Source: Candidatus Omnitrophota bacterium
GTDB lineage: Bacteria; Omnitrophota; Gorgyraeia; Gygaellales; Profunditerraquicolaceae
Reading direction: 5' to 3'
Length of the DNA: 64,000 bases
Assembly: GCA_030650425.1 (NCBI GenBank)
Contig: JAUSED010000005.1
Span: forward strand, 78,932 to 142,931
This document shows, one piece after another, positions 3-63,998 of this stretch. Positions within the stretch are counted from its first letter, which is position 1. Every line of letters begins with the position of its first letter. Position numbers and translations under genes: made by a program. The notes beneath the pieces were generated by a model. That model was not told the DNA's origin. It saw nothing but the letters and a program-made list of their open reading frames with translations, and did not search any database.

Positions 3-290
3 GTAAAGGATGATGGCAAAGGGATTAACAAGGAGAAGATTATTAAGCGCGCGGAAGAGTTGGGATTCATCAAAAAAGGCCAAAGGCTTAGCGAGCAGCA
101 AATCCTTAACTTAATATTTCTGCCTGAGGTAAGCGAAGCAAAAGACAGCCGGGAAGGAACGGGAATAGGCTTGGCTACTATTAAGAAGAGCATTGAGGCT
201 GTATGCGGCCAGATAAACGTAAAGAGTAAGACAGGGCAAGGAACCCAATTTAGCTTTAGCCTGCCTTGCGGAGTAGAGCCAGATAAGCTG
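3..290 (+). other. C-terminal part of a histidine-kinase-type ATPase (HATPase_c/GHKL) domain
   Basis: The translation ...DDGKGI...EGTGIGLATIKKSIEAVCGQINVKSKTGQGTQFSFSLP matches the G1/G2 boxes and the C-terminal sheet of sensor kinase ATPase domains. Confidence 0.55.
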
Positions 291-48200: not shown

Positions 48201-51200
48201 ATATCAGAAATGACTATTTCTAATTACCTGCGCAGGATTCAGGCATTATTGCAGTTAGAAAAAAAGCCGCTCATTAAGATAGAACTAAAAATAAAGAGAA
48301 GGACAATAGCGGATCAGATAGAGGAATGGGCTTTAAATAGGGAGCCCAGCCAAAAACTCAAAGAATGGGGAATAAAAGAATTAGCTGCCTTGTTTGGAAA
48401 AACTCCCCACAGCATAAGGCAGGCGCTTCCCGCGATTAATAAAAGATTAACTGAACGAAACGAAGAGGAAGTAAGAGCAAATAAAAAAGAAGAGTCAGCT
48501 GAAGGCTATAAAAAAATAGCCCCAGCAGATGGCTTAGAGTTGTTTATACGAGAGGTTTTTAGGAAGATGGGTAAAGATGAGCAGCGGGTCTTTAATTACG
48601 ACTTTGAGGGTGGTAATGATATATTTAAGGGAACAGGATTAACCCTGAAGCGAGTTGAGTCATTAATAAGAAGCAGTGTTGTCAAGATTTGTAATGCGTT
48701 TGGAACGCAAGACGAAAAGGCAGCTTATGAAAGATATCTGGATTTCAAGAAGCAATTGAATGCAAGCCACAATAAAGAAAGCTTAATAGAAGAATTTAGG
48801 GTTGGTGAGAGCGTTGAGAAAGAGGCAGAGGAAAGAGATGTAGATGATTCTGAAGCATATTCTCAGGTTCAAGATAATTCCATTGATGTAGAGAACCAAG
48901 AGGCCGCCAAGCATATAAAACGCCCATCCTCCTCGCCGATTCATAACAGTGAGCAAAACCCAGAGGAAGGCTTAAGGCGGATCTCTGGAAAGGCAGAGTT
49001 TACAGAAAAGATAAAACCATATCTTGAGGTGGGGGCAATGTATATTTTGTTTATAGCGGCTTGGATAGTTTTTGGCATTATAGGAAAAGTGCTGGATATT
49101 ATTAAGCCGTTTCTATCTAAGTTAATAGGATTCTTACAGCAAAAAACTTCAAGCAGAAGGAAAGATTCTAAGATACATAAACATATGGGAAAAGGGGATA
49201 TTTCTAAGTTAGGGAAAGAAAATGGTGCCGCTTCGCCGCTGACGCGAAATATAGAAAGAGCCAACGCAATATTTAACAGAGTTCTTGAGGCAGCCAGTAG
49301 GAATTCAAAAAGAAAGTATGCTATTAAGCTCTTCATTAAAGAAATAGACGCATACGGTAGGGCTTCTTTAAGCGGCAATTATATTACAATAAATCCAAAC
49401 CAGTTAGGTAATCCAGATTTTGAATTAGCTAAATTAATGGGCCATGAGATTACCCATATAACCTTGGGGCATATTTGGATTGTACGCATTGGATTCAGGG
49501 TCACAACCGCATTATTTTCAATCCTGTTTGCCGCAATGATAAGCGGGATTATTACTGAATTTGACGCGCTTCTTATTGCCGTGGTATTTTTAGGTACGGT
49601 GTTGATGTGTTACTTGGTTACTCAAAGCGAAGCCGATAAGAAAGGTAAGCAATATGCGATATTAGCCGGATTTGGAAATGATACAAAACCTTCGGCTTCT
49701 AAAAAAGCCAGTCATTCCGGCTCGCCGGTAGAAATCATTAGATATGATGAAGTCGATAAGAATGGGGTATTATTTAACCGTTTTCGGTTAATCTATGGAA
49801 CTAATAACCAGCCGCAAAAGCGAATTGTAGAGGTAAGGCAAAAAGGTTTTGAGCCGGTATCTATGTTGAATTATACCTCGCGTAAGATTCACGATACATT
49901 CCCATATGCAGCTGAAGGGCTCTCTCAAGAATTTAGCTGGCATGGCGAAAAAATGCTGGGTGATATGCCGCATACTACCACTCAAAGCGCGCTGTTAGCT
50001 TTAGAGAGGATTAATATTACAGGGAAAACCGTGATTGACGCTGGAACCGGTGATGGAGTATTAGCTATTATGATGGCAAAGCAAAAAAGTGAAGTTAAAG
50101 CTGCGGATTTTCCTTGGATGTTAGAGTTAGCCAAGGAGAACGCAAGATTAAATGGCGTCTATGATTCTATAGAATTTATCGCAGCTACTTTTCAAGATTT
50201 TGGACGAAATTACACAGGGCCGGTAGATATTTTGGTAACTAACATTGGGCGCATGGGAAGTTATCAGAGATACGAGTCTCTATCTAATTTATTCAAGCGA
50301 GCGCAAATTATTATTTTGGCCGGCAGTGAAATGAGGCCTTATGCTCCGTATGCGGATGTTAATCATCCATTTCATCCCTACGACGGGTATCCCTTCTTTA
50401 AAGGAGATAAGTTTATTCCTCTACTCAAAGTAATAGTCAGAACAAAATATTCAAGCGCTGAATGGGCGGCATTGGTTCTTGCCGCCGCCTCGCCGGTCAG
50501 TCAGTTAAATCAGAAAGGCTTAAATTGGAAAGAATTTTTAGGCAGGGTAAAAGAAGCGCGGGTGATTTTGGTAAAAAATGATCTTCATTCTCCCTCAGGC
50601 GAAGCTCCTTGGATATTATCACCAACTGAGCAAGATAAAAAGGTATTCGCAGGAAATTACAACAAAGTTACAGAATTATTAAGGAACCTTCGTATCCTCG
50701 AAGCCCTTGAATTAGATACACCGGATCCGCACAACGATGTATTAGATGATGAAGGGTTTTTAAAGCTGATTGGGGCATTTATGGCTGGCGCCTCTAGCCC
50801 ATTGCGAAACAAACCCGCCGCCTCGGCCGCAGGTATTCCTAATAAAATAATAACCAGAAAGAGATTCGAAGATTGCCTAAGAATAAAGAATTGGGTTAAT
50901 CTTAAAGGCGGGTATAAGAAAGTTTGGTATCCGGGTTCCGGTTCTGATGTGGCGTTGGCCCTGTATGCTACTAATGGAGATGAATTTACCCTTACAAATT
51001 ATACACTCTTTGGAGAAGCGGATGATTTTAGCAACTTTGAGGGTTGGGAGAGGGAATATCATTATCATTTAAGATGCACCCACAGTTGGCTTAGCGTTAA
51101 TTACTATAGATGGAATAGTATAAGCGCGCAGATTTTCTCTGAATTAGAAGCGATAGGGGTAAATTTTGATGATGTATTAAAGACAAGGATTAATCCTGCG

Positions 51201-54200
51201 AGATTTAGACTGGAATTTGATTGGCAGCATCCTTCTGAGAAGATAGCCAAAACAAGGATTATTGACTATATAACTCCGGGCTGCGACTTTTATACTCCGG
51301 AAAACAAGGCAGATATCATAATTATCAAGGCGTTAGATCAATTTCACATTAACCCGCAGGACATGCTTTCTTTCTTAAATCAAAATGGATTTATAGTTAG
51401 CGATATTTATCTGGAGATCCTAGGAATCAGGCCCGTTGCCTTGAAGCTCAGCCATAAATTTGGATACGCCCATAACTTGCCATTCGGAGAATTAGTTGGA
51501 TTAACTACGGGTACGGATGTATTTTTATACAGGAAAATTTCCGCAGCCACTATTTTTAATGGCCCCTCGCGGATAAGTTCACCTATTAATCGCCAAGGGC
51601 AGGCCCCTCAAGATGAAGGCCTTAATAAACAGATTGAGGCGTTAATCAAGATAGTAGGGACAGGGGACGTCAGGGCATCTATTAAGTTATTCGAGATAGC
51701 AGAAGCAGGAAATTTAGGCCGTGGCTTTGTTACTGAGATTTTTGCCCTTCTGAAAGACGAACGTAGGTCTGCGCGAACCGATGCCGCGGTAGTGCTGCAG
51801 GTTGCAGCCTGCAAAGACATTGAAACAATGCTTGAACTTATTGAGCGGACAATAAATGACGAATCGTTAGCGGATGAACGCTACGATACGCATGGCCGTA
51901 TGACTTGGCCTCAGCGCCTTACCGTAAACATCATTAATGAAAGAAAAGGCCAATACATTTTGGAATCTTTAGAATCATTAAGAGGTAATTCTTTACAAAA
52001 GGATATGGTTATAGATTTTATCTTGGATTATGGCAAGTATATAAACGGCTTCTTTAACTTTGCGATCTTGCTCCTCGATAATAAATTATTAAATGATAAA
52101 CAAATCAACAAGATTATCTATGATGTATTTGGCGCGCCTGTTTCACTAAGTAGAATTCGTAAGGCAGCCATTTTTAGTCAACCTCAAGAAATTCTTCCGA
52201 AAGAATTAGGCCTAAAGATACAGACAGATTCTAAAGTAATTATCCTGTCCGGATGCAATTATCCGTTACTAAGGACAGAGGCTCTGATAGAGGATTTAAG
52301 ACACACATACCACTTCGACAGCCGGGTTTCATTTACGGAATGGCCCGTAGAGGAAACGCCCTTTGGCTACGCATTGGATGCCTATAACTTTTTGAAAGAG
52401 CGCTCTCAAGAAATACCTTCGCTTGGAAAGATGCTGAGAGCGATGGAAAGTCGCTCAGGAGAGATTATCGAGGCTTATAAAGAGGAGCTTTATAAGCCAT
52501 ATCCGAATTGGTATTATCTATTAAAAGAGCTCAATGAGATTATGCATCAGGTCCCTTATGACGCAAAATTACTTTTAGGCATCCTTGATTCTTATGCGAG
52601 AGAGATTTTCCATGAAGCTAATTGGATTAAAACATCGCAAGAGAGCATTCCCGGCACCTATATTATATCTTTATATGGAGGGTTATCTGCGCATGACACA
52701 CCTTGGATTTGCGCGGGAGAGGATTTATCAAGCCTTTTAGGCCGGATATTAAAGGAAAATCAGATTGATTGGCGCGCGGAAGAAGACAAGAGCTTAGCAG
52801 GCCTTAGAAACTATGCATACATTGTATTGCCGCTTTCATTAGTAGGCAGCGGTAACGAGGATTTACTGAAGGCCATAATCGGCATATACTTTTTACCAGA
52901 GATCGGTTCTCTTCGCAAGCCAATGCATTCGCTAAACTTAGAGTATGTGATTTCCCACACTGATTCCTCCAGAAGATTTAGCATCGATTTAAAGAAAATC
53001 ATAGATTCTTTACTAAGTACCTTTCCCAAGAACCTTTCTTCGCCGATTACTCTTGCCTGCGGTAAACCGTTGCAGCTAAATCCCGCCGCCTCGCCGCTGG
53101 CTGATAAAAAAAATCAAGATGAATTCAGGATGTTTGAATTTATGGATTTGTTAAGCCAGGATTTAAATCAACATTCCGCTGAGTTAGAGAAAAATAGCCC
53201 TAAGGTTGCGGTGTTTTGTTCTGCCAGGATTAATTCCGGAAAATATTGGGAACTGGCAAAGGCCTTAGGGGCTTCGCTAGAATCTTCCGGTTATACTATA
53301 ATTACCGGAGCTGGCCCGGGTTTGATGGAGGCGGTTGGCGAGGGCGCAGGCCAAACTATTGGGCTGAATATTAATATGCCGAATAAACAAATTCCTAATT
53401 TTTACGTAAAGGAGTGTTTAGAATTTCACAATTTCTCAATAAGAAAGGCTATATTTATCAAATACGCTGATGCCTTTGTAATCATTCCCGGAGGATTAGG
53501 AACTTTAGATGAGCTTCTTGAGGCCTTAACCTTAAAAGACAGGGGATATATCGATGCCCCAATCATTTTATTAGATAAAGGATTTTATTCAGGTTTATTT
53601 GAATTTCTAGAGGGAGTCGAACAGGCTGGTTTTTTGAGAAAGCCCCTTAAAGAATTATGCGTCCTTGTTGATTCTGTAGATGAAGTTTTGCGATATCTTA
53701 AACTAAATAAGGCGCCTCTCAAGCAGGGGAAAAATAATATAGATATTAAACAGGTTTTGGATAATCTCAAGGAGTCATTGGCCGAACTGCAAGGCATAGA
53801 ATCAGCGGTTGGTATTCTGGGCTCGCATTCGTTTGGGAAAGACTCTTCCTCTTATAGGCAGGCATATAATTTAGCCAGGGGTTTTTCCAGAGGTGGCAGA
53901 AAAATACTTTATAGGGGCTGTCAGGGGATTACCGAAGCAGTTGACAAGGCCATTGAAGCAGAAAAAGGCGTGGGTATATCTTTTTGGGTCCCGGATTATG
54001 AAAAAATTCAGCCGGTTATAGGTAAACGATTGGTTTCTCTGCACAGGTTCGCGCAGAAGATTCTTTTGATAACGCATAGCAGGCTTGGGCTTATTTTCTT
54101 TGCCGGAGGAATTGGCACGCTCGATATATTATCCGATGCTTTATGTTTGATTCAAAATAAAAAGATACAGGCAATGCCTATTGTATTAGTGAATAGAGAG

Positions 54201-57200
54201 TTTTGGCAGCCTTTGGTTAGCTGGCTGGAAACTATTTTGAAATCAGGGGCAATATCCAAGGAGGATATTGAATTAGTTAATCTTGTTAGTACAAATGAAG
54301 AGATAATGAAGATTATCGCCGCATCTTCGGTTTTAGGCGAGCAAGCGCGGGATTCGAGCGAATATCGTTTAAGTTCGCCTGTGAACGAATCCTGCGTAGG
54401 CCAACCCTTAGACAGACCCTCTCAAATTAGTAATGTAGACACTTTACACAACTCATCGCCTGTCAAGCAATTAGGAAAGAAAATGCTTCTGCGGTTAGAT
54501 ACCGATAAAAAGTATTCGAGCTCTCCGGCAATAATAGAAGAGATAGCCGCGGCAATTACAGATTCGCTCAAGCTGACTGATTACTCTGGTTCGCCGTTGT
54601 TCTCCTATACTTTCTGTTTCCCTGCCACAATACGTGGCGGAAGCTCGTCTATGTCCGTTTCACCTGTAACTTATGTAGCCTTGGTGGTTTTATATTCATC
54701 TACCTCGTTTTTGATAACAGAAGGAGCAGGATTATTAGTAAACCAGCTTTTTCTAATTCCGCAAATTATTTGCGCTCCGCCAATAGTAAAATATGCAACT
54801 AAGCCCGTTTCCTCGCCGGTAGGGGCTGTTGGCTTCAGCTCGCCGGTGGAAAAAACAGTTGGAGCGACGGTGGTGACGCGAGGCGCCGCCTCGCCGCTTG
54901 GTGAATGGTCAAGTGATAATCTTAGGCAGCAACTTAAGCAGATTGAAGGGAATGTTTTGAATTTGCTGAAGAAATATTCTTTGCCAGAGTTTACGGATAT
55001 TGTTTTACATCCTGTCGCGTATCGTTCTTTAATCACGTGGTTAAACGCAGTCATCAAAAGCCGTGAAGATATACAAGATTTCAAAAAAATGCTGCAGAGA
55101 ATGGAAAAAGACTTTCTGGGGAGTATTTCCGGATTTGTTGCTATAATTTCTCCTGAAGAAAGAAAATCTTTAGTAGAATCTTTAGAATCCTTTAAGCGGA
55201 AGGCAAACGATAAGTTAAATGGTTTTATTACTGAAGCAAGAGAGCTGTATGGAAGGTTTTTGAAGTTGACGCAGCGGGATTTAGAAAATCGTTTTCCGGG
55301 AGAAACTACTCTTATTCTCTTACGGATAATGAGGACAGAGCCTATTAACCGTGAGTGGAATAGGGTTAGGGAAAATGAACATTTCACTTTAGATCCGTAT
55401 CATGGCTATACAAAATTAGACTGGAGAGTGATTATTGTTGCGCAAGTGCCTTTCGGGAGAATCAAAACAACCCCATGGGTATTGGAATCAAGTAAGACTG
55501 AAGAAGAATTTATTGTTTCCGGAGGCCTTCTAAACGTTGTCCAAACCTTTGATAAAAAAGATAAATGGATTAAGTGGAGAGAAGCAAACAAGGATTATTT
55601 TTATGCCAAGCTAAACTCGGCTTCTTCGCCAATCCTAGAAAATAATCAAAGTCTTCTCGTAGCTGGACGAAGTCCTATCAAATTTATTGGCTTAAGCTTG
55701 CCTGTGGAGGGAAAGCTTAAAGAGGTTTTCCTCTATGATAAGCTAGAAGAGAAACTGGTGCCGGTAGAGGCCAAAATCCTTGATACTCAGGACCCTGAAT
55801 TCAACGGTTTTCAGGATGCTGTAAGGGAGTGGTTAGCCTATTCTAGGGATGGTTATGCTATTGATAAAGCTAAAGACCCTCTAACCGGAGAAATTATTAC
55901 TATTCCTCATATCCGTCCTCTTGCCAGCCAAATTATCCAGAATGGAATCACTACTAAAGAGCACTTTATCGTTTTTAAGACAGCCGAGCAGGGAATTATT
56001 GCCTTTGTTCGCCTAAAGTTAAGGCCGCGCAGTATCCTTGGTGCCGGGTTTATTGTTTCTCCGGTTATCCGGCAAGTTAAACGTTACGATACGGAAACTC
56101 TCTTAATGGCCGTGATTCAGTCAATCATCGAATTTAGCCTTCAACAATTGGGCAGGGTAAGGGTGTGGGCGGATCCAGCTAACCGAAAGATGCTGGATTA
56201 TATTTTGCTATTTGGGCCGATAAGAAGACAAGGAAAATTCCTGGTAACGGACGAGGCCGCGCGAAGAATTCTGTGGTACATCCGTAAAAAGATGGCAGAT
56301 TATACCGCAACTTTAGCTGAGCCGGAAGAGAAAAAGTTGGATGGTTCTATTTCCGGCGCCTCCTCGCCGCTGGATTTAACGGTTGGCTTAAGTATTATCA
56401 TCTCCTATGCCTTATTAGTTCCGGTATTTGATTTATACCTGCGTAGGACTATTCAGCGTAAGACCATAGAAGAATTTAAGAAATTCCCATATCCTGTTTG
56501 GATTATGACATTCGCTTTTCTATTATTAGCATGGAAATTCCCGCCGTTGCACAATATTATTTTTTACCTCACCGCATTTTGTCCCGGCATTTTCCTTTCT
56601 TTGATAACGACACTTTCTTTGGCGACTATTTTTAGCCACCGAAAGACCAAGAAAATCATTATACCTTATTATTTATTGCGGGAAGAAGTGAATTATATGT
56701 GGAGACTATATGTCGTTAATATGAAGATTATTGAAGCCGTTGATATCTTTTTCTCAGCTGTGGCAGTCGCCTTCTTTAGTTATTATACCCATGCAACAGC
56801 TTATTTCATACTAGTAATGCTTCTAAAAAGAGCCGGAGTTCTATATCTAGCCCGAGGGCTCACTAAGGAATTTTCTTTAGAGCTTGAAGAGAGATACGAT
56901 GGGGGCAGGGACTTTATAAAAAAGTTTATCACAACAGAGCAGTTATTAGGAACAGATATTGCGCTTAGAGCAAAGGGGGAGCATAAGATAAGCTATAATT
57001 GCCCGCGGCCAATAGCTTTTGCGTTTAGTTATAAAGGATTAGTTCTGTATTTAGAGGAACCGTATCTTGCTTATTATTTATACCCTTGGTTTATGCCTGT
57101 AGTCAGAGTGATTCAAGAGATCTCCGGCTGGAGAAAGGCAAGAGACCGCGCGAAAGATTCTCTTCCGCAAAGCGAAGCAGCTTGCGGCGGATTAATTCCG

Positions 57201-60200
57201 CAGCGTATTGAGTATAGAGATGGGGCCGCCTTGCCGCCGGGATCGCATATCGTCGTCTACGAGGAGAATGGGAATGTAGACGTTGTATATAGCCCATTGT
57301 TTAACAAAGGGTTACAAAACAAATCTTTAGGATATCAAGATGGCCCCGCCGCCGGCACTGAGCCTAATCGAAGCGCCTCGCCGGTTTCAGGAGAGACAGA
57401 ATTATCTTCGGCTTCCGCATGCCTTAGCCCCGCTAAATCCCGCGATAGCCCTAAGGGGAATAAATTCTTAACCTTAACTTCTGCTTTTCTTATTTTTCTT
57501 ACCTCCTTCCATCTTTACCTTAGTCCTTTGCGGGCCTATGCTAACCTTAAGGTTAATCTAAGCGTAATCACGCCCCAAGCGTCACAAGAGCGCCAAGAAA
57601 CCGAAGAGCTTTATAATCAGGCAAGCAGGCATCTAAAGAATCAAAAATACCAAGAAGCGCTGGATCTGTATATAAAGTTAATTAAGCTAGCGCCCAATTA
57701 TATAGATGCCTACATTGACAGGGCCTATCTTTATATCCACCTTGCTCAAGAAGCAAAACAAACAGGTAAAGATACAAAAGGCCTTAGGAAGAACAGAGAC
57801 AATGCAATGTTGGATTTAAAGAAGGCTGAGGCGCTTACTTTAAAGGCCATAAAAGAGAAATACTTTACTAAAGAAGAAGGCAATTTGGTATTTGCCTCAA
57901 TCTATAATCACTACGGATTATTTTATTATCACCTTGAAGGTGATTACAAGAAAGCAGTTAGTTATTTTGAGCAGGCCATAGGCTTAGAGCCGGATAACCC
58001 GATAAATCATAATGATTTAGGGGGAGCCTATTTTAAGTTAGGTAAATACGGCCTTGCCGAAGAGGCATATACTAAGGCAATTGATAAAGCAAAAGCCGCC
58101 AAAGACAATTACGCGGGTTCCCGCATTTACGCAAACCGCGCATTCTTAAGGTTTAAACTCGATAGATATAAGGCGGCAAAGCAAGACATACAGGAAGCCA
58201 CTAGTTTAAATCCCAATTTAAAGAATGATAATAATATCCAAAATTTATTAAAGGAGATTGAATTGAAACTTCAAGAGCGAGAAGGGGTTATTGATTTGTC
58301 TTATCTAAAACTCAATAACTCCAATATCCTTCAGCAGGCTTCCTCGCCGGTTTCGGAGAATAGAAGGGGACAGTTCTATCGTAACTGTTCATCGGCTATG
58401 GAGATAGACAGAGACGGTCTGGAGGATTCTAAGGAAGCGCTTATCGCGCCTTTGCAACATCCCTTAGGCAGGCATTTATATATAGGTACTGATGAGGAGC
58501 GAGACTTATCTAAATGCAGGCAATTGTTATTTGCAGCTTGTCTTGAACTTAGGATATGGAAGAAGCGATATTATTTTGAGCAAGTTGAAAACAGGATATG
58601 CAAGGATCCTTCGTTTCGGACAAAAATAGGCCTTATTGTCTTATTGCGCGATATCCTGCTTAATTATGACGCTTCTAACGTAACGGTTGCTTTTGTAGAC
58701 AGGCTTGAGGGTATTCCGGAAGAACTGATATCGTTCCTTTTAGATGACGAGATCTTATCAGCTTATTTGAATTATCAAGATGAACTTCGAAAATATAAAT
58801 ACATGGATGATAGGGCTATCGAAACTGGCTTTTTCCCATTTTATTATCTATGGTCAGCGTATAAACGCGGGGAAATGCGTGATGCCAAAGAACTCAAAGA
58901 GAGAGTTGTTAGCATCCTTAAGGGTTTTGGCTATGATAAAGCATTCTTCAAGCTCCTAAATGACTTAGCGCATAAGAAAAAGGCGGATTTTAGCCTTGAT
59001 AGCGGCGCAGACGAATTGCGGGTTTTCTTTAGGGCCTTATCCCGTAAAGATATCGTTGAGATTTTTAGACAGACCTTATCAACTCAGATTCTGCCTTCTG
59101 TTAAAAGGCATAGAGCTTCATCTGTAATACAAGGTACCGCCTCGCCGCTGAAGGAAATTGGATCAGAAACCCAAAGAGAAGCAGCCAGGGGAATGATGGT
59201 CATTGAATTGCCCGTGGATGCCGACTTGGGCGAGATCATAAATCACAAAATTGTATATGTTAAGAATGACGGGAATATTAGCACGATTAATGAAGGAAAT
59301 ACAATTAAACTACTACATCCTGATGGGCTAGAATGGAATCTTAGCTGCAAGGTAAGGGATTATCTAAGAGCTACATTTAGCTTAGATTACTCTCTCCTAG
59401 GATTAAAACCTCATCCCTCAACACTTGGAGCGATATGGGCAATGGAAAGGTATCCTACCAATAATCAGCAAGTCCTTGACGCGGGTTGCGGTGAAGGGGT
59501 TTTCACGATTTTGGCGGCTAATTTAGGAGCGAGTAAGGTTATAGGCGTTGATTTAAAAGATTTCATTATTGGACTCGCAAGAAGAAATGCTGAATTAAAT
59601 CGCTTAACTCATATTATTGAATATCACAAACAGGATTTCACAAAACCGTTACAACTATCTGTAAATAACATCAAGTTTGACAAGATCATAACTAATATAC
59701 CCTGTGGTTATACTTATATGGTTCCATCTTTATTGAGGCTTTATCCGGAAGTCAAAACCTTTATTTGGGCAGGTGATTACGTTCATCAAGAAGGCCGCGA
59801 GTATATCGTGGAGGGATCAGAAGAATATATTAGGGAGATTCAGGCATTAGGATTTCGATTCGTAGAAAAATTGATTATTCCTCAAAGAGGTTTGTTTTAT
59901 CCAGAAATTATTATTTGGAAGTGGGTGACATATATCTTAAAGCGGGAAATTAACGAAGCAGGCGCCGCCTCGCCGCTGGGGAAAAATGATCAAAATATCC
60001 TTATCCCTGAAATTATTTCTGAAGCTATTGCAGAAGAAGTTCAAAGAATGCCGGCTTGGGAACTTTTATCTGTTTTAGATCTCAAAAAGGCCAAGCTACT
60101 TTTTACTAAAAGCGGTCCTAGAGAGCTTACTGTCCACAAGATTAAAGTGCCAAAGCTTGTAAATAAGTATAAAGCGCCAGAGGGTTTAAGTATTCTGCCG

Positions 60201-63200
60201 TATGAACTTTTTGATACGACAGAATTTGAACTTTTATACAATAAAAAAGGATACCTTATCGCGATTTATCCGGTTCTCCCAAACGGATTCCTGATTAAAT
60301 CTGGCGAACGACTCCCTCACTATTTTGATTTTAGTGAATATTATTTTAAAATTCCGGAATTCGGTGATCCGAAAATGATTGAAAAATGGGATGCCTTCGT
60401 AAAGGATGTCGGCAGAGATCGGGAAGCAATACAGGCTTATGAGGATTTAATCGGGATAAAGGGTAAGCTTGAAAGGCGCCCGCGTTGGGTACCTTACATC
60501 TACGCAAATCTTGATTATCGGGATAATTTTCCATTTGCTCGGGCTTTTTACATTGAGATGTTTAGCCGTTTGATTAAAAAAGATGAAATCTCGAATAAAA
60601 TCTCTAGAGACATAATCCGGTCTATTCTTCCTGTTTTTCCGACTGTTTACCATCCGGGATCCCATTTATTGGATGATTGGAAATACATTTTAGCTGTTAC
60701 CAGGCGTCTTGATATCCAAAAAGACCATGATATTTTGGTTGTTGGCCCGGGGAATGGCCTTGACACTTGGTTTGTTTCTCGGCAAACAAGGCGGAAAATT
60801 TATGTTGCGGGAATTAATCCTTTGGAAGTTGCCAATACCAGGGCTGTCGCAAAAATTGCCGGGTTTAAGATAGAAGCCAGGATTTACGACAACATTATTT
60901 CTAAAGACGGCGTGACTGTCTTTAATAAGAGATTTGATCGGATTATCTGGAATATGCCCACATATTATCCGGTTGCCCCTAGAATCCGGGAAAGCCTTGA
61001 AGAATGGGAAGATAATGATTACGACGGTATGATCTTAAGGCGTTTTGCCGGAGGCCTTCCATTACTTCTTAAACCAAATGGAATTGCTTTGGTTTGGAAT
61101 TCCGCTGCCGGAAAACTTTTAGATGAGGTTGAAGAAATCTTAAAAGCAAGAGGAGCGCTAGATGTGGCAGTCGAAAAATACCCGGGTATGACGTATTTAG
61201 CCAATATCGAAATGGGCACGGAAACCATTCCTACCGCGCTTTACTTTATCCGCAAGGGAAAAAATCCGGATGCAGCAAGCGCCTATTGTGTCAGTTCGCC
61301 GCTGAAAGAAATAGTTGGAGCGACGGTGGTGACGCGAGGCGCCGCCTCGCCGGTTTCGGGGGGAATATTCCTAACTATATTATGGCCTAAAGACGGTAAT
61401 ATCTTTAATGCGCTCAAAATCTCTGTCATTAGTAGCGATATTCCTAATCTTGCGGATTCTCATAAGAGCAAGATTGAGGGCATCGTTTGTCAACAAGCCG
61501 GATTGCTTAATGATCAATTGGGCAGTATCAAAGACACTTTCATTCAGCGGCCATATCTTGATGTTCAGTTTAGGGATACTATTTATGGCTATATGACACT
61601 TACTGAGTTCTTTGGTTATTTGCGGATGGGATTTAAGGTAGGAGACAGCTTTATGGGAGGATATATTGTAGATTTCTATGGTTTCGGCAATCATAAGACG
61701 ATGCAGAAGCTCAGCGACTACAATAACAGAAGTATAAGCAATTATTTCTTTTTGCTCGCAGCGCTGAAGAAAATTGGTGGCGTTATCATTGATGCCCAGA
61801 AAGTGGTATATAAATATATTGGAGTCAACGAAGATTTTTTTACCGGATTTGACTTTGGCGAGCATCTAATTATTCAAAGGGCTAAAGTTAGGGGATTCAG
61901 CAAGTATCTTAGCAATGCCGCGTTTAATATGTATGATAGCGCGAGTAACTTCAGTGGTGGTTTTAGGCAACTCAAACCTTATTTCTATCCTCTGATGTTC
62001 GGCAAGGGGAACCTTGGAGAGCGGGCGAATGACCCCTCGTTCATAAATTCCCAGTATAGTCTTAGTCATATTTTTTCTCCTTCTAAAAAAGTATACCACG
62101 CTCTTAACGGGGTTGTCAAGAATATTAGTCTTGCCGCCTCGCCGATAAGGATCTCTCCATTTCTCAGTGACATATTTAGAATGTTTCATATGTTTGAGGT
62201 AAATGAATCTATTTTAAGCGAAGACGGGAAAGAGGCGCAGCAGTGGGTTAAGAAAATCATTGGCACAATGCAGAGGCCCCCTGTCGGCCTTATTACAAAT
62301 AATAATGCAGAAAAGCTCATAGCGCTTATGCCTAATCCACGGAAAATATCTCTCGGTGGTTGGTTTGATCTTAGCAGCCTCAATTTTGGAAGCGATGATG
62401 AATTTGGCTTTGGTTGTTTAAGGCCTTGCCCGCATTGTTCAGAAGGGAATACAAGAGCGCGGGTAACAAATCGCACGCTGCCGCCTGCAATAAAGCTTAT
62501 TGAAGAGATGCGCAAGGAAGGCCAGCAAGATACGTTAAGAGGCCTGAAAACTTATCCCGGAAGGTTTCTGATCCAAGGGTGGAATAACACCGACCTTTTC
62601 TATTGGTGTGATCCTTTCTTTAGAGTCTATTTAGACGGCCTTATTGAATTTATCGCGCGTCATTACAAAGATAGAAAATTCCGCCTGCGGATAGCCACAA
62701 TCGGCCCAAACATAGATGACTGGCGCGCATTTATCGTAGCAAAGAGTATTGACAATCTGGTGCTTCAATATCCTGAGTTAAGAAATAATATATTTAGTCT
62801 ATCCTTGCATTTGGCCTTATTTAGCACCAGAGGGTTTGATTATAATACTATCTCTGCTTTGTATGAGCGCAAGATAAATCCACAGCGGCTGGCTAAGGTT
62901 ATAGATAACTATGTGGCCCGCTACGCAGCTATTATTGGCGTTCTCAAGAATACGCTAAGAACGGTCAAAGTATTTCTGTCAAATGAAAGCAGTGAATTTG
63001 ACTCTCTTACGCTTACTGTATTAGATAGGGTCTTAGAGAGGGTCAATATCAGTGGTGGCTTAAAACAGAAGATTATTGATGGAGTAGCTGCAAGAGAACT
63101 AAACAGTGATGTAATGACCCCGTACGGCTTTACTGTAAAAAGCGCTAACATTACGCCATCCGGCCACCGGGGGTTTGATTTTGTAATTGGGTTATTCAAG

Positions 63201-63998
63201 CTTGCAGGCAGATGGAAAGAAGCTGAACGTTACAAGAGGGCTCAAGCAGTAATGAACTTCGCTCCATACCGCAGTAATTATGTCCCAGAAGATGGGTACC
63301 CTCAAACCATAATTTTACCGGGAGAAAGAATTATTGTTCAAAACGAGAAAAGAGAAATGTTTAAATTACCTCTGCAACAACTCGATCCTGATGCTGAATT
63401 TCTTGCCCGCTACGGACTACCTGACAAAAAATCTATAACTAAATATTTATCTTCAAGCCCATTGGCCGAAGTCGCCGCCTCGCCGGTGATAAACAGGCAA
63501 TCCATAACTTATGAAGAATTTGCCGATGATAAACTAGTCAGATTATTACAAAGCGCATCAGAAGAAGAAGTATGGGAGGGCATAATTCAATCCTTAGAAA
63601 AGCCAAGTCTCACTAAGAAAGAGGTGTCGGTAATTTTTGAGAATATTGTAAAGATATGTTATATGGAATATGGATATTACAGGTTCTCCGGTTTTTACTC
63701 TAAGGAGAAATTCCGCGAATTTTTTAAGAGGCTATTAGCATTTAAAGAGGAAATAACCGAAAGGATATTTGTAAATGAAGAAATTAAAATTCTATTCAGG
63801 AAAAGAATTGAAATTCTGAACAAAGTTTTAGATCTATCTGCGGCCGTTCCTTATGAGGTAATTCACTACCAAAGAGAGGATAGGATCATTCCTAAAGACA
63901 CCGATGGTTATTCTTTACCTTTAGCATTTTTAAGAATAATAGCTTTGACTATTTACGATACGTTGAAGGTTAATTTGACAAATAAGGTGGTTGCTATG
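3..63998 (+). CDS. Giant uninterrupted ORF, partial at both ends (21,332 codons in window), encoding a multi-module signalling/regulatory mega-protein
   Basis: The frame with codon starts divisible by 3 has no stop codon in the window. The ORF track lists ATG-to-stop ORFs in the other five frames but none in this one, as expected if it is never closed. Recognisable protein motifs occur in this frame from the first to the last kb, and the terminal 2 nt are left over as expected. The true gene is therefore longer than 64 kb. Confidence 0.85.
3030..3500 (+). other. Degenerate HD-like domain (RelA-type, HD dyad replaced by HK)
   Basis: ETYFHHALAAAKTL...AAFLHKL aligns to EPYIxHPLxVA...ALLHDV of RSH hydrolase domains but lacks the Asp of the HD dyad. 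It lies immediately upstream of the synthetase domain. Confidence 0.3.
3675..4060 (+). other. RelA/SpoT-type (p)ppGpp synthetase (nucleotidyltransferase) domain
   Basis: SRVKSAYGMFEKI...FEALKDILGTHIIS...KGYEAIHIDVEI...PYEIVIFS matches RPKHIYSIYRKM...FDVRAVRIV...GYQSIHTVV...VEVQIRT of RelA/SpoT synthetase domains. Confidence 0.55.
5607..6030 (+). other. HD domain of the SpoT/Mesh1 (p)ppGpp-hydrolase type with an intact HD dyad
   Basis: YELARQIHRGKKRDNGEPYLMHPIAVV...ALIDHDVFEE...LMKMADKLHSLKT matches AHxGQxRxSGEPYIxHPLxVA...LLHDVVED...KLADRLHNMRT. Confidence 0.65.
7311..7410 (+). mobile_element. MITE/REP-like nested palindromic element inserted in frame (copy 1)
   Basis: A perfect 11-bp inverted repeat gtcattgcgag (7329-7339) / ctcgcaatgac (7390-7400) encloses a perfect 27-nt palindrome, cgaagcaatctcg a cgagattgcttcg (7352-7378). 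The encoded peptide is R/C-rich (PIVSLRANEVSEAISTRLLRRCAPRND), unlike the flanking protein. A related copy lies 0.8 kb downstream. Confidence 0.55.
8114..8222 (+). mobile_element. MITE/REP-like nested palindromic element inserted in frame (copy 2, about 70% similar to copy 1)
   Basis: Outer perfect 11-bp terminal inverted repeat gttgcgaaatg (8114-8124) / catttcgcaac (8212-8222). Inner repeats cgtcatcctgag (8133-8144) / ctcagaatgacg (8190-8201) and cgaaggatctcg (8150-8161) / cgagattcttcg (8169-8180). Same architecture as copy 1: GTCAT..GAGCGAAGCGAAG.AATCTCG...CGAGATT.TTCG...CTCAGAATGAC. The encoded peptide is FRHPERSEGSRYRRDSSAFGLRMTQ. Confidence 0.55.
10970..11340 (+). other. Domain of unknown function, copy A of an internally duplicated module
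   Basis: PKLSLGLPMVIKSFHNLDEIRYLQEMAGNFELQFCVVSPKRTPYPLLIFSKEL...RFVPFA is clearly homologous to 31540-31870 (LELGLLMATKPFLNLREVRNIQELAGDFELQFTVIFPKGARHPLVVFSREL...RFVPFA). Both copies are followed by HTH domains. Confidence 0.5.
11440..11620 (+). other. LuxR/GerE-type HTH DNA-binding domain
   Basis: TDRELEIWRLWAKGVDREAIGKALNEGERFIKRVISKIITKFNISKRGQIAHF matches the LuxR C-terminal pattern LTxRExEVLxLxAxGxSNKEIAxxL.ISxxTVKxHxxNIxxKLxVxNRxxA. Confidence 0.5.
11925..12060 (+). other. Second LuxR-type HTH
   Basis: LSEREKKILWLFIAGYNPKAIALTLSLPEGILLSDILFAMKQKL. Confidence 0.4.
16560..17440 (+). other. TPR repeat tract followed by a TM helix (17455-17520)
   Basis: Repeated motifs such as W..LG..YY..GD...A...Y..A and A.Y.LG.I.F.QGK.DEA; then LPMLFVGLVLFIIAGISAG. 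Confidence 0.5.
18703..18747 (+). repeat. 17-bp near-perfect inverted repeat (hairpin) within coding sequence
   Basis: ggacacaatccttaatt (18703-18719) is complementary to aattaagtattgtgtcc (18731-18747) with one mismatch. It is followed by the tandem cctggaattc ctggaattc. Confidence 0.5.
18785..19150 (+). other. CheD-like (chemoreceptor glutamine deamidase family) domain
   Basis: GGRFVGCTACLFWDNNAGIHGFLHLFP resembles the CheD signature LGSCVAVCLYD...GGMNHFMLP. Confidence 0.3.
20100..20400 (+). other. Possible GNAT acetyltransferase fold
   Basis: IQEESLYGKGYVNEILFWI resembles the acetyl-CoA-binding motif A (Q/RxxGxG/A). Similar weak GNAT-like segments occur at 18200-18500 and 38390-38770 (RHNGYGIKIFRTAIKAL). 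Confidence 0.25.
20545..21040 (+). other. GGDEF diguanylate cyclase domain (GGEEF active-site motif)
   Basis: DLLTGAYNRRYLDE...[26 protein letters not shown]...FRYGGEEFCVI...VTVSIGV...ADQALYKAKENGRNRV contains all the GGDEF hallmarks. Confidence 0.8.
22290..22830 (+). other. Protein-kinase-like fold (atypical)
   Basis: FADSKPENVIIHH resembles the catalytic loop HRDLKPENILL, and the downstream IDMDN sits in the DFG position as in atypical or aminoglycoside-type kinases. Confidence 0.3.
24780..25240 (+). other. TPR repeat tract
   Basis: LNDFGAICLDQGRYSLARILFEVGL...HFQLGYVSYLLGEFNLAFAYFQTAKRLG...LGDFDNALKEFQEMMQAG. Confidence 0.5.
27500..27620 (+). other. HExxH zinc-metallopeptidase-like motif (HEYVH at 27526-27540)
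   Basis: VVRIIIHEYVHYYSFYSP...AEVFAETIVEMIY. This is a minimal gluzincin/ImmA-like signature, weak on its own. Confidence 0.25.
29220..29960 (+). other. Sigma-70 family module (region 2 and region 4-like)
   Basis: GLIKKIIASYKVT...LEDAAIFGAKIAALKYHPERGVKFMTFAWNVIKHEI matches region 2 (LVxSIAKRY...[37 protein letters not shown]). The C-terminal segment ...DQFGFSIVAKQRGIKRQTVTKAYYLVLATLR resembles region 4. Confidence 0.55.
30229..30480 (+). other. Low-molecular-weight phosphotyrosine phosphatase/ArsC-like domain (CxGNxxRS P-loop)
   Basis: GGIKVVFLCNGNRWRSAAMYLW matches the LMW-PTP P-loop V(L/C)FVCxGNxCRS. Confidence 0.4.
31540..31870 (+). other. Domain of unknown function, copy B of the duplicated module (see 10970-11340)
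   Basis: See copy A. It is followed immediately by the XRE HTH array. Confidence 0.5.
31995..33105 (+). repeat. Tandem array of about seven XRE/Cro-C1-type HTH units (about 160 nt each), two of them near-duplicate
   Basis: Units such as LRQIREKMGLSQKELVNRLGFLNLSAITFYEIGTVKMPLDFLNRI. LLQELRESLGYTPAKLAKVIGYTEVDILHWENAEAWIPSGVLRDIRKRVMPERLRQIREKM (32150-32340) is paralogous to LLKALREFLGYRAEKLARELGKGYTEEGILRWEEGKEWIPRGVLKEIRERLIPLRLRQIRKEV (32640-32810). Confidence 0.6.
33645..34200 (+). repeat. Three tandem repeats (about 60 aa / 185 nt each) of an uncharacterised W...GFL.W..AVKA.G..P motif
   Basis: WPLELFLSQLKTASKILGTNSSTAFLRKYRKIRRAFLFLREKGFLSDWNSAVKATGGQPAFR / WTKEIFLKQLKNAIKESGTSASWVIKDKYRKIYRAYLLYGIEWGFLNWASAVKACGAKPHLR / IIKTRKIFLYRLRQVFADLGTTSSREIKKRYPQLFISFIFCQEEWGYLDWSSAVRKTGNQPIS. 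Confidence 0.6.
35330..35900 (+). other. TPR repeat tract
   Basis: AEQLLNDGQYAEAIKLFKQVV...AKAYFISGKEHYLRGNYRRAINYFRKVLDV. Confidence 0.45.
36040..36700 (+). other. Second sigma-70-like module (region 2-like plus region 4-like HTH) ending at a junction motif
   Basis: HLWLVKLAAIRYL resembles LRLVVSIAKRYL, and FQGLSMEFITRRTELNEKEINQYLKQGGQEIQSL is an r4-like HTH. It is paralogous to 33370-33560 (LALNHEDMDNIIRLTGLTQEEIDRHLIEGGEKIQKISGL). Both end in xSSPV / SASPV. Confidence 0.35.
38865..38876 (+). repeat. Junction motif GCCGCCTCGCCG, exact copy, in phase (AASP)
   Basis: Exact 12-mer. Context PAASPVLGK. Confidence 0.9.
40960..41530 (+). other. Cluster of about 5-6 predicted transmembrane helices
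   Basis: Long hydrophobic runs such as WLSIFPAALFWAGYYLF, VIILASIALIGLTTIVF, IVGTTAVMRAIMVGSRTFLFSGIYFFSMIIFSALCSVFIL and FLVFMGAFFISDIVAMF. Further TM clusters lie at about 15440-15540, 19350-19500, 19770-19850, 38960-39070, 49020-49130, 49490-49620, 54640-54790, 56370-56860 and 57460-57540. Confidence 0.5.
41823..41834 (+). repeat. Junction motif GCCGCCTCGCCG, exact copy, in phase
   Basis: Context PAASPLAEE. Confidence 0.9.
43565..44400 (+). other. Radical SAM core domain (CX3CX2C plus GGEP)
   Basis: IITSKCNLQCAPCIAQ gives CNLQCAPC = CX3CX2C, and FVGGEPSLYG is the SAM-binding GGE motif downstream. Confidence 0.5.
46283..46980 (+). other. Calcineurin-like (PPP-family) metallophosphoesterase fold, partly degenerate metal ligands
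   Basis: VLVIPDIHCQY...IQIGDVISRGPE...RLLGSHELL...VVHAGV follows the DxH(x)nGDxxDRG(x)nGNHE pattern, with D to S in GDxxD and N to S in GNHE. Confidence 0.45.
48150..48440 (+). other. Two helix-turn-helix motifs
   Basis: WESQRRLAEEIGISEMTISNYLRRI and LKEWGIKELAALFGKTPHSIRQALPAINKRL. Confidence 0.4.
49310..49660 (+). other. M48/HtpX-like membrane zinc metallopeptidase module (HEITH at 49444-49458) with flanking TM helices
   Basis: GNYITINPNQLGNPDFELAKLMGHEITHITLGH resembles the M48 core (...ITvttGLL..L..dELegVlaHElgHi). Hydrophobic helices lie both upstream (49020-49130) and downstream (49490-49620). Confidence 0.45.
49990..50300 (+). other. Class I SAM-dependent methyltransferase fold
   Basis: GKTVIDAGTGDGVLAIMMAK (motif I, VLDxGxGxG), ...VDILVTNIG. 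Confidence 0.45.
50484..50495 (+). repeat. Junction motif GCCGCCTCGCCG, exact copy, in phase
   Basis: Context AAASPVSQ. Confidence 0.9.
53085..53096 (+). repeat. Junction motif GCCGCCTCGCCG, exact copy, in phase
   Basis: Context PAASPLAD. Confidence 0.9.
53205..53650 (+). other. LOG-family (lysine-decarboxylase-like / nucleotide phosphoribohydrolase) domain
   Basis: VAVFCSAR...YTIITGAGPGLMEAVGEGA...KADAFVIIPGGLGTLDELLEALTL...PIILLD matches the LOG signatures GGGxGLMGA and PGGxGTxEEL. Confidence 0.65.
53800..54290 (+). other. Second LOG/DprA-like Rossmann domain, more diverged
   Basis: AVGILGSHSF...ILYRGCQGITEAVDKA...LIFFAGGIGTLDILSDALCL...PIVLVN. Confidence 0.35.
54857..54896 (+). repeat. 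40-nt perfect direct repeat, copy 1 (contains a junction motif; encodes VGATVVTRGAASP)
   Basis: agttggagcgacggtggtgacgcgaggcgccgcctcgccg is identical to 61313-61352 and in the same codon phase. The flanks match for about 8 more nt with 2 mismatches. Confidence 0.9.
56370..56860 (+). other. Cluster of about 6 predicted transmembrane helices
   Basis: LSIIISYALLVPVF, VWIMTFAFLLLAW, IIFYLTAFCPGIFLSLITTLSLATIF, VDIFFSAVAVAFFSYY and AYFILVMLL. Confidence 0.45.
57580..58240 (+). other. TPR repeat tract (about 6 repeats)
   Basis: ELYNQASRHLKNQKYQEALDLYIKLIKLAPNYIDAYIDRAYLY...GLFYYHLEGDYKKAVSYFEQAIGLEPDNPINHNDLGGAYFKLGKYGLAEEAYTKAI...ANRAFLRFKLDRYKAAKQDIQEATSLNPN. Confidence 0.6.
59440..59730 (+). 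other. Class I SAM-dependent methyltransferase fold
   Basis: QVLDAGCGEGVFTILAANLGASKVIGVD (motif I) ...FDKIITNIP (motif IV-like). Confidence 0.45.
59963..59974 (+). repeat. Junction motif GCCGCCTCGCCG, exact copy but out of phase with the ORF (read as APPRR)
   Basis: 59963 is not divisible by 3. The ORF frame reads ...KQAPPRRWGKMIKISF..., whereas the +1 frame would read EAGAASPLGKNDQNIL before hitting TGA at 60008. Confidence 0.8.
60700..61130 (+). other. Class I SAM-dependent methyltransferase fold
   Basis: HDILVVGPGNGLDTWFVSRQTRRKIYVAGINP...FDRIIWNMPTYYP...LKPNGIALVW. Confidence 0.45.
61313..61352 (+). repeat. 40-nt perfect direct repeat, copy 2 (immediately upstream of the antisense toxin cassette)
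   Basis: Identical to 54857-54896. Confidence 0.9.
61380..61865 (-). CDS. vapC: PIN-domain ribonuclease toxin (VapC-like), encoded antisense within the giant ORF and in codon registry with it
   Basis: The 161-aa translation has the PIN hallmarks IFVDSNIFIYHF (N-terminal Asp), TSVIVVAELLHRL (Glu), LLTNDALNLALM (Asp) and C-terminal IATNDRDFERI (Asp). Its start ATG (61863-61865) abuts the TAG stop of the upstream small ORF. It ends at the TAA complementary to the plus-strand TTA at 61380-61382. Confidence 0.75.
   Translation of the reverse strand: MLAKVKSGKKIFVDSNIFIYHFLGINDNATNFLQRCEQKEIIAYTSVIVVAELLHRLMIAETIEIYNISSHKAVSYLKSHPQITKELSKCHIAINSIPKLNIKIWPLNESVFDTAQLIIKQSGLLTNDALNLALMRIRKIRNIATNDRDFERIKDITVFRP
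61866..62069 (-). CDS. vapB: Antitoxin of the DUF104 type that commonly pairs with PIN toxins; start taken at the internal Met preceded by a Shine-Dalgarno
   Basis: MTKTILGIYERGVIRPLSKVPLAEHQRIEIRFELP... matches the MxxxIxAIYENGVLKPLEPLDLPEGTEVRV antitoxin signature. AAGGAG lies 7 nt upstream of this ATG on the minus strand. The track ORF (61866-62189) extends further 5' but without an SD. Confidence 0.7.
   Translation of the reverse strand: MTKTILGIYERGVIRPLSKVPLAEHQRIEIRFELPKTTTEVTRAIIHIKRGIAKILAESPNFSPLNN
62077..62119 (-). promoter_or_regulatory. Sigma-70-type promoter plus Shine-Dalgarno for the antisense TA operon
   Basis: The minus strand reads TTGACA (62119-62114) - 18 nt - TATACT (62095-62090) - tttttag - AAGGAG (62082-62077) - aaaaaat - ATG (62069-62067). 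Confidence 0.6.
62133..62144 (+). repeat. Junction motif GCCGCCTCGCCG, exact copy, in phase (immediately beyond the antisense cassette promoter)
   Basis: Context LAASPIRI. Confidence 0.9.
62400..63200 (+). other. Second CX3CX2C motif (possible radical-SAM-like module)
   Basis: GFGCLRPCPHCSEG gives CLRPCPHC = CX3CX2C at 62415-62438. The domain extent is uncertain. Confidence 0.3.
63474..63485 (+). repeat. Junction motif GCCGCCTCGCCG, exact copy, in phase
   Basis: Context VAASPVIN. Confidence 0.9.

Follow-up and report, generated by a model that had tools for sequence, protein, structure and literature searches.

The window analysed here, that is, a stretch of 64,000 nucleotides (nt) from the assembly of a Candidatus Omnitrophota bacterium (GCA_030650425.1, contig JAUSED010000005.1, positions 78,932 to 142,931), is taken up by a single giant multi-module gene, within which a pair of identical 40-nt direct repeats forms the subject of this study. 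The reading frame of the gene (frame +3, 41% GC) runs for 63,996 nt without a stop codon (Table 1). At least 12 distinct Pfam families tile the window, none of which dominates and which represent cytoplasmic-type enzyme and signalling domains: HATPase_c, HD_4, GGDEF, several TPR blocks, a tandem HTH_31, GNAT, radical SAM, Metallophos, two PrmA-like methyltransferases and a tandem LOG/Lysine_decarbox. Roughly every 250-300 residues, the modules are separated by a junction motif of the form [A/S][A/S]-S-P-[V/L/I], which is in frame and keeps one codon phase throughout. Database relatives of the sense modules are very few, namely P0001 (3,883 amino acids (aa), partial, "Candidatus Omnitrophica bacterium"), P0046 (5,115 aa, "Candidatus Omnitrophota bacterium") and P0049 (6,713 aa), each of which shares one module with the window at 25-45% identity (36-45% over one module for P0001 and P0046). 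The module that the window has in common with P0001 and P0046 lies in a different neighbourhood each time (BLASTP, phmmer); judged from these neighbourhoods, the modules are shuffled between genomes. In its overall make-up the gene appears to fit the multi-enzyme or "Archaeovorin" class of Omnitrophota giant genes: it likewise consists of an open reading frame (ORF) of more than 64 kb that tiles unrelated Pfam domains (methyltransferases, TPR, radical SAM, metallophosphoesterase, histidine-kinase ATPase), and the only homologs found for its sense modules are large proteins from metagenome-assembled genomes (MAGs) of Omnitrophota. The C39/S8 peptidase and SecA-(DEAD-)like domains that the published descriptions place at the N-terminus of such proteins were not seen in the window, which holds neither end of the gene.

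The two 40-mers (AGTTGGAGCGACGGTGGTGACGCGAGGCGCCGCCTCGCCG, positions 54857-54896 and 61313-61352) are identical at 40 of 40 positions, start 6,456 nt or exactly 2,152 codons apart, and lie in the phase of the open frame, in which both are translated as VGATVVTRGAASP. An earlier note on this DNA had described a perfect 40-nt repeat, extendable to about 48 nt with two mismatches, that occurs in the same codon phase at an extended junction site of a gene whose modules are otherwise diverged. All of this was confirmed: the 48-nt extension was recovered next to an alternative one of 65 nt at 91% identity, each copy proved to lie within a double junction (see below), and the paralogous modules within the window share only 25-48% protein identity in a tiled protein self-search. 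No other exact repeat in the window reaches 40 nt, which makes the pair the longest; among 2,926 pairs of junction sites that were compared, the next longest exact run through a junction core measures 20 nt. The 28 nt of the 40-mer that lie outside the common junction core have no further match in the window on either strand when up to three mismatches are allowed, and no match in 100 shuffles. Since the 40-nt run is a clear outlier with respect to the 20-nt runner-up, and since its unique 28 nt are found nowhere else in the window, the match is homologous and not due to chance. Some 12-15 of the 40 nt do belong to a motif that is repeated at many junctions, which would be in line with a low-complexity coincidence at GC-rich junctions, and a mis-join in a metagenome assembly might also be suspected. 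Nevertheless, such an artefact or coincidence is highly improbable in our view, as the other 25-28 nt are unique and perfectly matched, both copies have distinct in-frame flanks within a 64-kb open frame, and a mis-join would yield one copy instead of two.

The perfect match has a sharp edge. Within the 65-nt unit all five mismatches are located in the 22 nt upstream of the 40-mer (17 of 22 positions identical), and beyond this stretch the flanks of the two copies are unrelated. Four of the five mismatches change the encoded amino acid (EKT versus KEI, V versus L), and there is no synonymous difference across the 13 codons of the 40-mer, beside diverged flanks. Assuming uniform substitution, the probability that all mismatches fall outside the 40-mer by chance is roughly (25/65)^5 = 0.008; the similarity of the 22-nt upstream part equals that of the best 1.3% of junction pairs. 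Homology thus probably extends over the whole 65-nt unit, inside which the perfect tract is sharply delimited.

The junctions come in two types. The S-type reads SSSP[VL], is often followed by E or D and is encoded by varied codons, whereas the A-type reads [G/P]AASP[VL] and is conserved at the DNA level. Each copy of the repeat lies in a double junction with one of either type, in which the S-type core is followed by three codons, VGATVVTRGA and the A-type core, with a core-to-core distance of exactly 51 nt in both cases. The 40-mer itself has a GC content of 70%, versus 41% for the gene, and contains a perfect 17-nt palindrome, GCGAGGCGcCGCCTCGC (54878-54894 and 61334-61350). As unrelated spacers of about 3-60 aa are found in some ten further S-then-A double junctions of the window, there is no evidence in these sequences of a conserved role for the spacer. 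Upstream of copy 1 a third core, TCGCCGGTA, ends a run of short segments that each terminate in SP[VLA] (54375-54899). Such series, in which every segment is very short (9-51 aa, 22-23 aa in several cases) and ends in SP[V/L/A], were observed both here and at 24495-24641; they represent clusters of junction motifs without an intervening module, and copy 1 closes one of them.

Downstream of copy 1, homology to the stand-alone 572-aa protein P0047 (E=1.5e-13) starts directly after the A-type junction, which identifies the module found there as a genuine sense module. An antisense ORF that overlies copy 1 (54671-55387) was rejected as a gene, because it has no Pfam match, is not codon-aligned and has a junk-like composition, and also because the sense module at this position has a stand-alone homolog. 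Besides the P0047-like module, the block between the copies holds the module also present in P0001 and P0046, a PrmA-like methyltransferase and TPR repeats. Its GC content and skew do not differ from those of its flanks, and the idea that the block is compositionally foreign was discarded.

Table 1. Coordinates of the repeat pair, the junctions and the associated features (window positions unless a residue range or another locus is given)
Feature	Position	Strand	Remarks
Single stop-free frame, giant multi-module gene	3..63998	+	21,332 codons, open at both window ends
Third junction core TCGCCGGTA	54813..54821	+	27 nt upstream of the copy 1 S-type junction
Extended 65-nt unit, copy 1	54835..54899	+	91% identical to copy 2 unit
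S-type junction, copy 1	54837-54848	+	AGC TCG CCG GTG
40-nt repeat, copy 1	54857..54896	+	codes for VGATVVTRGAASP; exact match to copy 2
A-type junction, copy 1	54885-54899	+	GCC GCC TCG CCG CTT
Block between the copies	54897..61312	+	seven sense modules
Extended 65-nt unit, copy 2	61291..61355	+	91% identical to copy 1 unit
S-type junction, copy 2	61293-61304	+	AGT TCG CCG CTG
40-nt repeat, copy 2	61313..61352	+	codon phase as in copy 1
A-type junction, copy 2	61341-61355	+	GCC GCC TCG CCG GTT
PIN-domain toxin gene (putative), 161 aa	61380..61865	-	Pfam PIN E=3.2e-15; codon-aligned with giant frame
AF2212-like antitoxin gene (putative), 67 aa	61866..62069	-	Pfam AF2212-like E=4.4e-8; directly upstream of toxin gene
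Sigma-70-like promoter (predicted)	62090..62119	-	TTGACA, 18 nt, TG-TATACT; 11/12 consensus matches
A-type junction core GCCGCCTCGCCG closing the cassette	62133..62144	+	792 nt (264 codons) after identical core in copy 2
Paralogous module pair	aa 3555-3838 vs 10374-10705	+	within the 25-48% protein identity range
Paralogous module pair	aa 10666-10789 vs 10825-10950	+	within the 25-48% protein identity range
Paralogous module pair	aa 16651-16774 vs 19798-19924	+	within the 25-48% protein identity range
Paralogous module pair	aa 17690-17912 vs 17899-18118	+	within the 25-48% protein identity range
193-nt linker copies and tandem 8-nt repeats in L019	L019 7866-12969		gene of a 5,115-aa Omnitrophota protein
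60-nt direct repeats in L020	L020 261-320 and 1076-1135		flank PIN_3 cassette; 92% identity

The conservation of the junctions extends to the level of the nucleotides. The window holds 47 strict sites ([A/S/G][A/S]SP[VLIAM]) and 98 looser SP[VLIAM] matches. The sequence GCCTCGCCG occurs 15 times on the plus strand, in all cases in frame 0 (0.40 +/- 0.64 occurrences expected), and not once on the minus strand of the window. The A-type core, GCC GCC TCG CCG, is near-identical as DNA at about 15-20 boundaries, and its codon choice departs strongly from that of the ORF as a whole: the junction serine is encoded by TCG in 60% of cases (12% across the ORF), the proline by CCG in 68% (31%) and the alanine by GCC in some 80-90% (27%). 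These A-type cores are confined to positions 24630-63485, the first 24.6 kb containing only codon-degenerate S-type junctions. The same nucleotide core is present in both other Omnitrophota giant ORFs for which DNA was at hand (L011 and L019). In L019 the core is gene-specific and not a genome-wide repeat, because 19 copies occur in the 15.3-kb giant gene and none in the adjacent 10 kb of ordinary genes. L019 also contains an 8-nt variant of the core, TTCGCCAG, in tandem repeats that are read in all three frames (SPVRQFASS), an arrangement that is easier to understand as an event at the DNA level than as a requirement on the peptide.

Related giant genes contain dispersed linker repeats of their own. 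In L019 a 193-nt linker is present in four copies (72-97% identity), of which the 97% pair flanks one module of about 230 aa, next to families of 62-83-nt repeats with five copies and a 73-nt pair (93%) whose members lie 7.2 kb apart. In L020 a 60-nt extended junction is present in three copies (72-92%), the 92% pair flanking an antisense PIN cassette. The linker sequences are fully different between the genomes: VGATVVTRGA in the window, AFGSPISQFASS..EVPANRPTNN in L019 (4-5 copies, 72-97%) and GDTTLNSPNGSS.GSSP in L020 (3 copies). Between two L019 linker copies of the same length the differences are spread evenly over the codon positions (10/13/15), which argues against selection on the linkers at the peptide level. 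Dispersed, genome-specific linker repeats prove to be a trait of such giant genes, and linkers that are alike within a genome, differ between genomes and carry no sign of peptide selection would conform to a pattern of concerted evolution.

From the repeat itself, its position in a two-part junction, the DNA conservation and the strand and frame specificity of the core, and the linker repeats in relatives, we infer that the pair is, on balance, probably the product of a recent non-allelic exchange (i.e. a duplication or gene conversion) between junctions, involving a linker without a function of its own. A single linker mini-cassette would then occur twice, as the two 40-mers, in an Omnitrophota-type gene whose many modules are translationally fused. 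The core identities of 12-20 nt could provide the short homologies for exchange between non-allelic junctions and, because the cores share one codon phase, such an exchange would preserve the reading frame. It may have proceeded via gene conversion, unequal crossing-over or the reinsertion of an excised block, with the in-frame core common to the junctions as the probable primer of a conversion or crossover. One recent event would have placed a copy of one junction's core and of 25-28 nt of its spacer at another junction, and this spacer presumably has no separate function as peptide or RNA. By way of the resulting 40-nt direct homology, the 2,152-codon block could in turn be lost, duplicated or excised as a circle, in each case in frame. 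The edge of the tract supports exchange, with 0 differences over 40 nt inside versus 5 over 22 nt directly upstream. In a broader sense the pair hints at giant genes being rebuilt by in-frame shuffling.

Several observations weigh against a recent exchange. Two copies in a single sequence do not allow such an exchange to be told apart from strong selection on the nucleotides of the 40-mer, and a binding site would also explain the 17-nt palindrome and the 70% GC in a gene of 41% GC. In addition, the core uses the same codons in three distant genomes; recency alone hardly accounts for this, and it suggests a role of the core at the level of DNA, RNA or codons. The corresponding alternative is that of a selected element kept identical in both places, either a peptide of 13-17 residues (e.g. 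a signal for processing or recognition that is released between two cleavage sites) or a DNA or RNA element (a binding palindrome or an RNA processing site). It would account for the lack of synonymous differences, for the palindrome and for the seeming nucleotide-level constraint on the core across genomes, and a weakly similar spacer, SSATVRGG, is indeed found between two junctions in P0001. Even so, we consider it quite improbable. There are two copies only, the spacers of the other double junctions are unrelated, the linkers of relatives have entirely different sequences and the L019 copies differ evenly over the codon positions. The folding energies of the 40-mer and the 65-mers on both strands fall within the range of shuffled sequences (z from +0.28 to -1.35), despite the palindrome, and the whole window has no Rfam match at gathering thresholds. 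Finally, the degenerate peptide-coding pattern GTNGGNGCNACNGTNGTNACNMGNGGNGC was matched three times in the GTDB representatives, seven times in JGI metagenomes and not at all in IMG/VR, collections that do not contain the source genome; these matches were rejected as true further copies, since all derive from organisms with 58-75% GC and have an unrelated context, as expected for chance hits.

Copy 2 borders a toxin-antitoxin (TA) cassette that is encoded antisense to the giant gene. The PIN stop codon lies 27 nt downstream of the 40-mer, in agreement with the earlier description of copy 2 as the upstream border of this cassette. The AF2212-like match begins at residue 41 of a 107-aa ORF, and 67-aa homologs start with MTKTI.. 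or MIKPL..; the stop codon of the antitoxin gene abuts the start codon of the toxin gene. Identical 12-nt A-type cores, spaced by 792 nt, enclose the cassette (61380-62144), and its codons are exactly aligned with those of the giant frame. Despite the presence of 22 leucines and 14 serines it contains no TTA, CTA or TCA, that is, none of the codons that are read as stops on the opposite strand (hereafter forbidden codons; P ~7.6e-7 given the codon usage of the ORF itself). On these sequence features we take the antisense PIN/AF2212 cassette to be real and of the type II, VapBC-like kind, with a predicted activity.

Five homologous cassettes were found in other samples, in six contig records (L012, L013, L015/L016, L017 and L020; L015 and L016 are near-identical records and were counted as one cassette), with PIN identities of about 52-75%. 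They are likewise antisense in a long frame that is open over the whole contig or up to a scaffold gap, and none of them contains a forbidden codon; in the more distant, stand-alone relatives of L014 and L018, 16-17 forbidden codons occur and an antisense frame is lacking. In L012, L013, L016 and L020 the cassette lies between junction motifs, while the site in L015 reads GSSLA and L017 shows only a weak SPL match. The PIN_3 cassette of L020 represents a second antisense PIN cassette, with a promoter-like sequence and a predicted ribosome-binding site (AAGGAGG) of its own. Two further roles for the repeat were considered in this context. That the 40-mer is part of the TA cassette was rejected, because the junction motifs ahead of the L012, L016 and L020 cassettes come with spacers unrelated to the repeat, and a role of copy 2 as terminator of the cassette was dropped, as no terminator-like site was found around it.

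The cassettes bear on another possible origin of the pair, namely that it is the footprint of an insertion: the 6.4-kb block of seven modules (or the adjacent cassette) would have entered as a unit and the junction would have been duplicated in the manner of attL/attR. Such an event is closely related to the exchange proposed above and could involve dedicated cassette-capture machinery with the junction core as its crossover site. The copies are indeed same-phase direct repeats around a whole number of modules, single cassettes in relatives lie between near-identical extended junctions (97% in L019; 92% in L020, around the antisense PIN), the identical cores around the window's TA cassette fit as well, and homologous cassettes elsewhere are also flanked by the junction motif. 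We nonetheless judge an insertion of this kind fairly unlikely. No recombinase or integrase domain was detected by Pfam in the 21,332 codons or in the antisense ORFs that were scanned, and none was found next to the L019 giant gene; moreover, the block equals its flanks in composition, the 40/65-mer lacks significant secondary structure and the TA cassette lies outside the pair instead of between its copies. Of the two origins given by the earlier note, recent gene conversion or site-specific recombination, it is exchange or conversion that is supported (by the sharp tract, the diverged modules and the linker repeats in relatives), while a dedicated site-specific mechanism received no support from the searches for a recombinase, a significant fold and an Rfam family.

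Part of these features can be compared with known systems. Chromosomal integrons consist of cassette arrays with species-specific attC repeats and contain TA cassettes with their own promoters; an attC is an imperfect palindrome of 57-141 nt that forms a hairpin at the 3' end of each cassette, and the cassettes are separate ORFs. The window resembles such arrays in that unrelated cassettes are bounded by a short core, the extended repeats are homogeneous within a genome but vary from one genome to the next, and TA cassettes, here with a predicted promoter of their own, are embedded. It differs in that the sense modules are fused in one frame, the core measures 12-17 nt and is not a folded, attC-like palindrome (the 65-nt units fold like shuffled sequences), no IntI-like integrase was found in the window, and the TA cassettes run antisense and lack all codons that would interrupt the host frame. 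In the genes for polyketide synthase and non-ribosomal peptide synthetase megasynthases, homogenisation affects entire domains of kilobase size, and the modules are paralogs of each other. The likeness to their concerted evolution lies in the dispersed direct repeats at or near the inter-module linkers of one very long ORF, which permit in-frame recombination and module swapping; in the window, however, only a linker of 40-65 nt is shared and the flanking modules are unrelated. The cleavage motifs of viral polyproteins are likewise short peptide motifs at module borders, as is the junction motif every 250-300 residues, but the A-type motif is conserved as DNA including its synonymous positions, which is not required of a cleavage site.

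A bolder picture, which we regard as speculative and rather unlikely, would be that the junction core (GCC GCC TCG CCG and its variants) is the crossover site of an in-frame capture and shuffling of cassettes by which the Omnitrophota giant genes are built. Such a system would follow an integron-like logic in a translationally fused form, with the extended linkers in the role of the species-specific attC repeats and the stop-purged antisense TA cassettes stabilising the array against deletion. The 40-mer pair would then mark the most recent capture or transposition and form a live substrate for in-frame excision.

The pair bears on the question of how bacterial genes of 100-400 kb originate, stay open and change. 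Within the window the pair is the clearest trace of in-frame DNA exchange between module boundaries and, together with the gene-specific, DNA-conserved core, the genome-specific linker repeats and the antisense TA cassettes, it supplies testable coordinates for recombination in giant genes and possibly for the cutting of their products. The searched text of two studies of Omnitrophota giant genes (West-Roberts et al. 2023, bioRxiv 10.1101/2023.11.21.568195; a 2026 preprint, 10.64898/2026.06.07.730766) presents the cleavage points of the products as unknown and contains no mention of the junction motif, the dispersed linker repeats or the antisense TA cassettes. Should the pair be the fossil of one conversion event only, it would still be a small but useful marker of concerted evolution in giant genes.

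Some of the paralogous module pairs listed in Table 1 are arranged in tandem and others lie about 20 kb apart, and one member of the PrmA-like pair is located inside the block bounded by the 40-mers. Another direct repeat, of 117 nt and 71% identity (32211-32327 versus 32691-32807), lies within the tandem XRE-type HTH_31 pair of the giant frame.

An exact look-up of the PIN protein sequence returned no identical record; 44 homologs of the toxin gene were found. Two of the more distant ones, P0020 and P0023, are annotated as deriving from archaeal MAGs (Halobacteriota and Njordarchaeum). One Omnitrophota species is reportedly a predator of archaea, which makes these archaeal relatives a curious observation.

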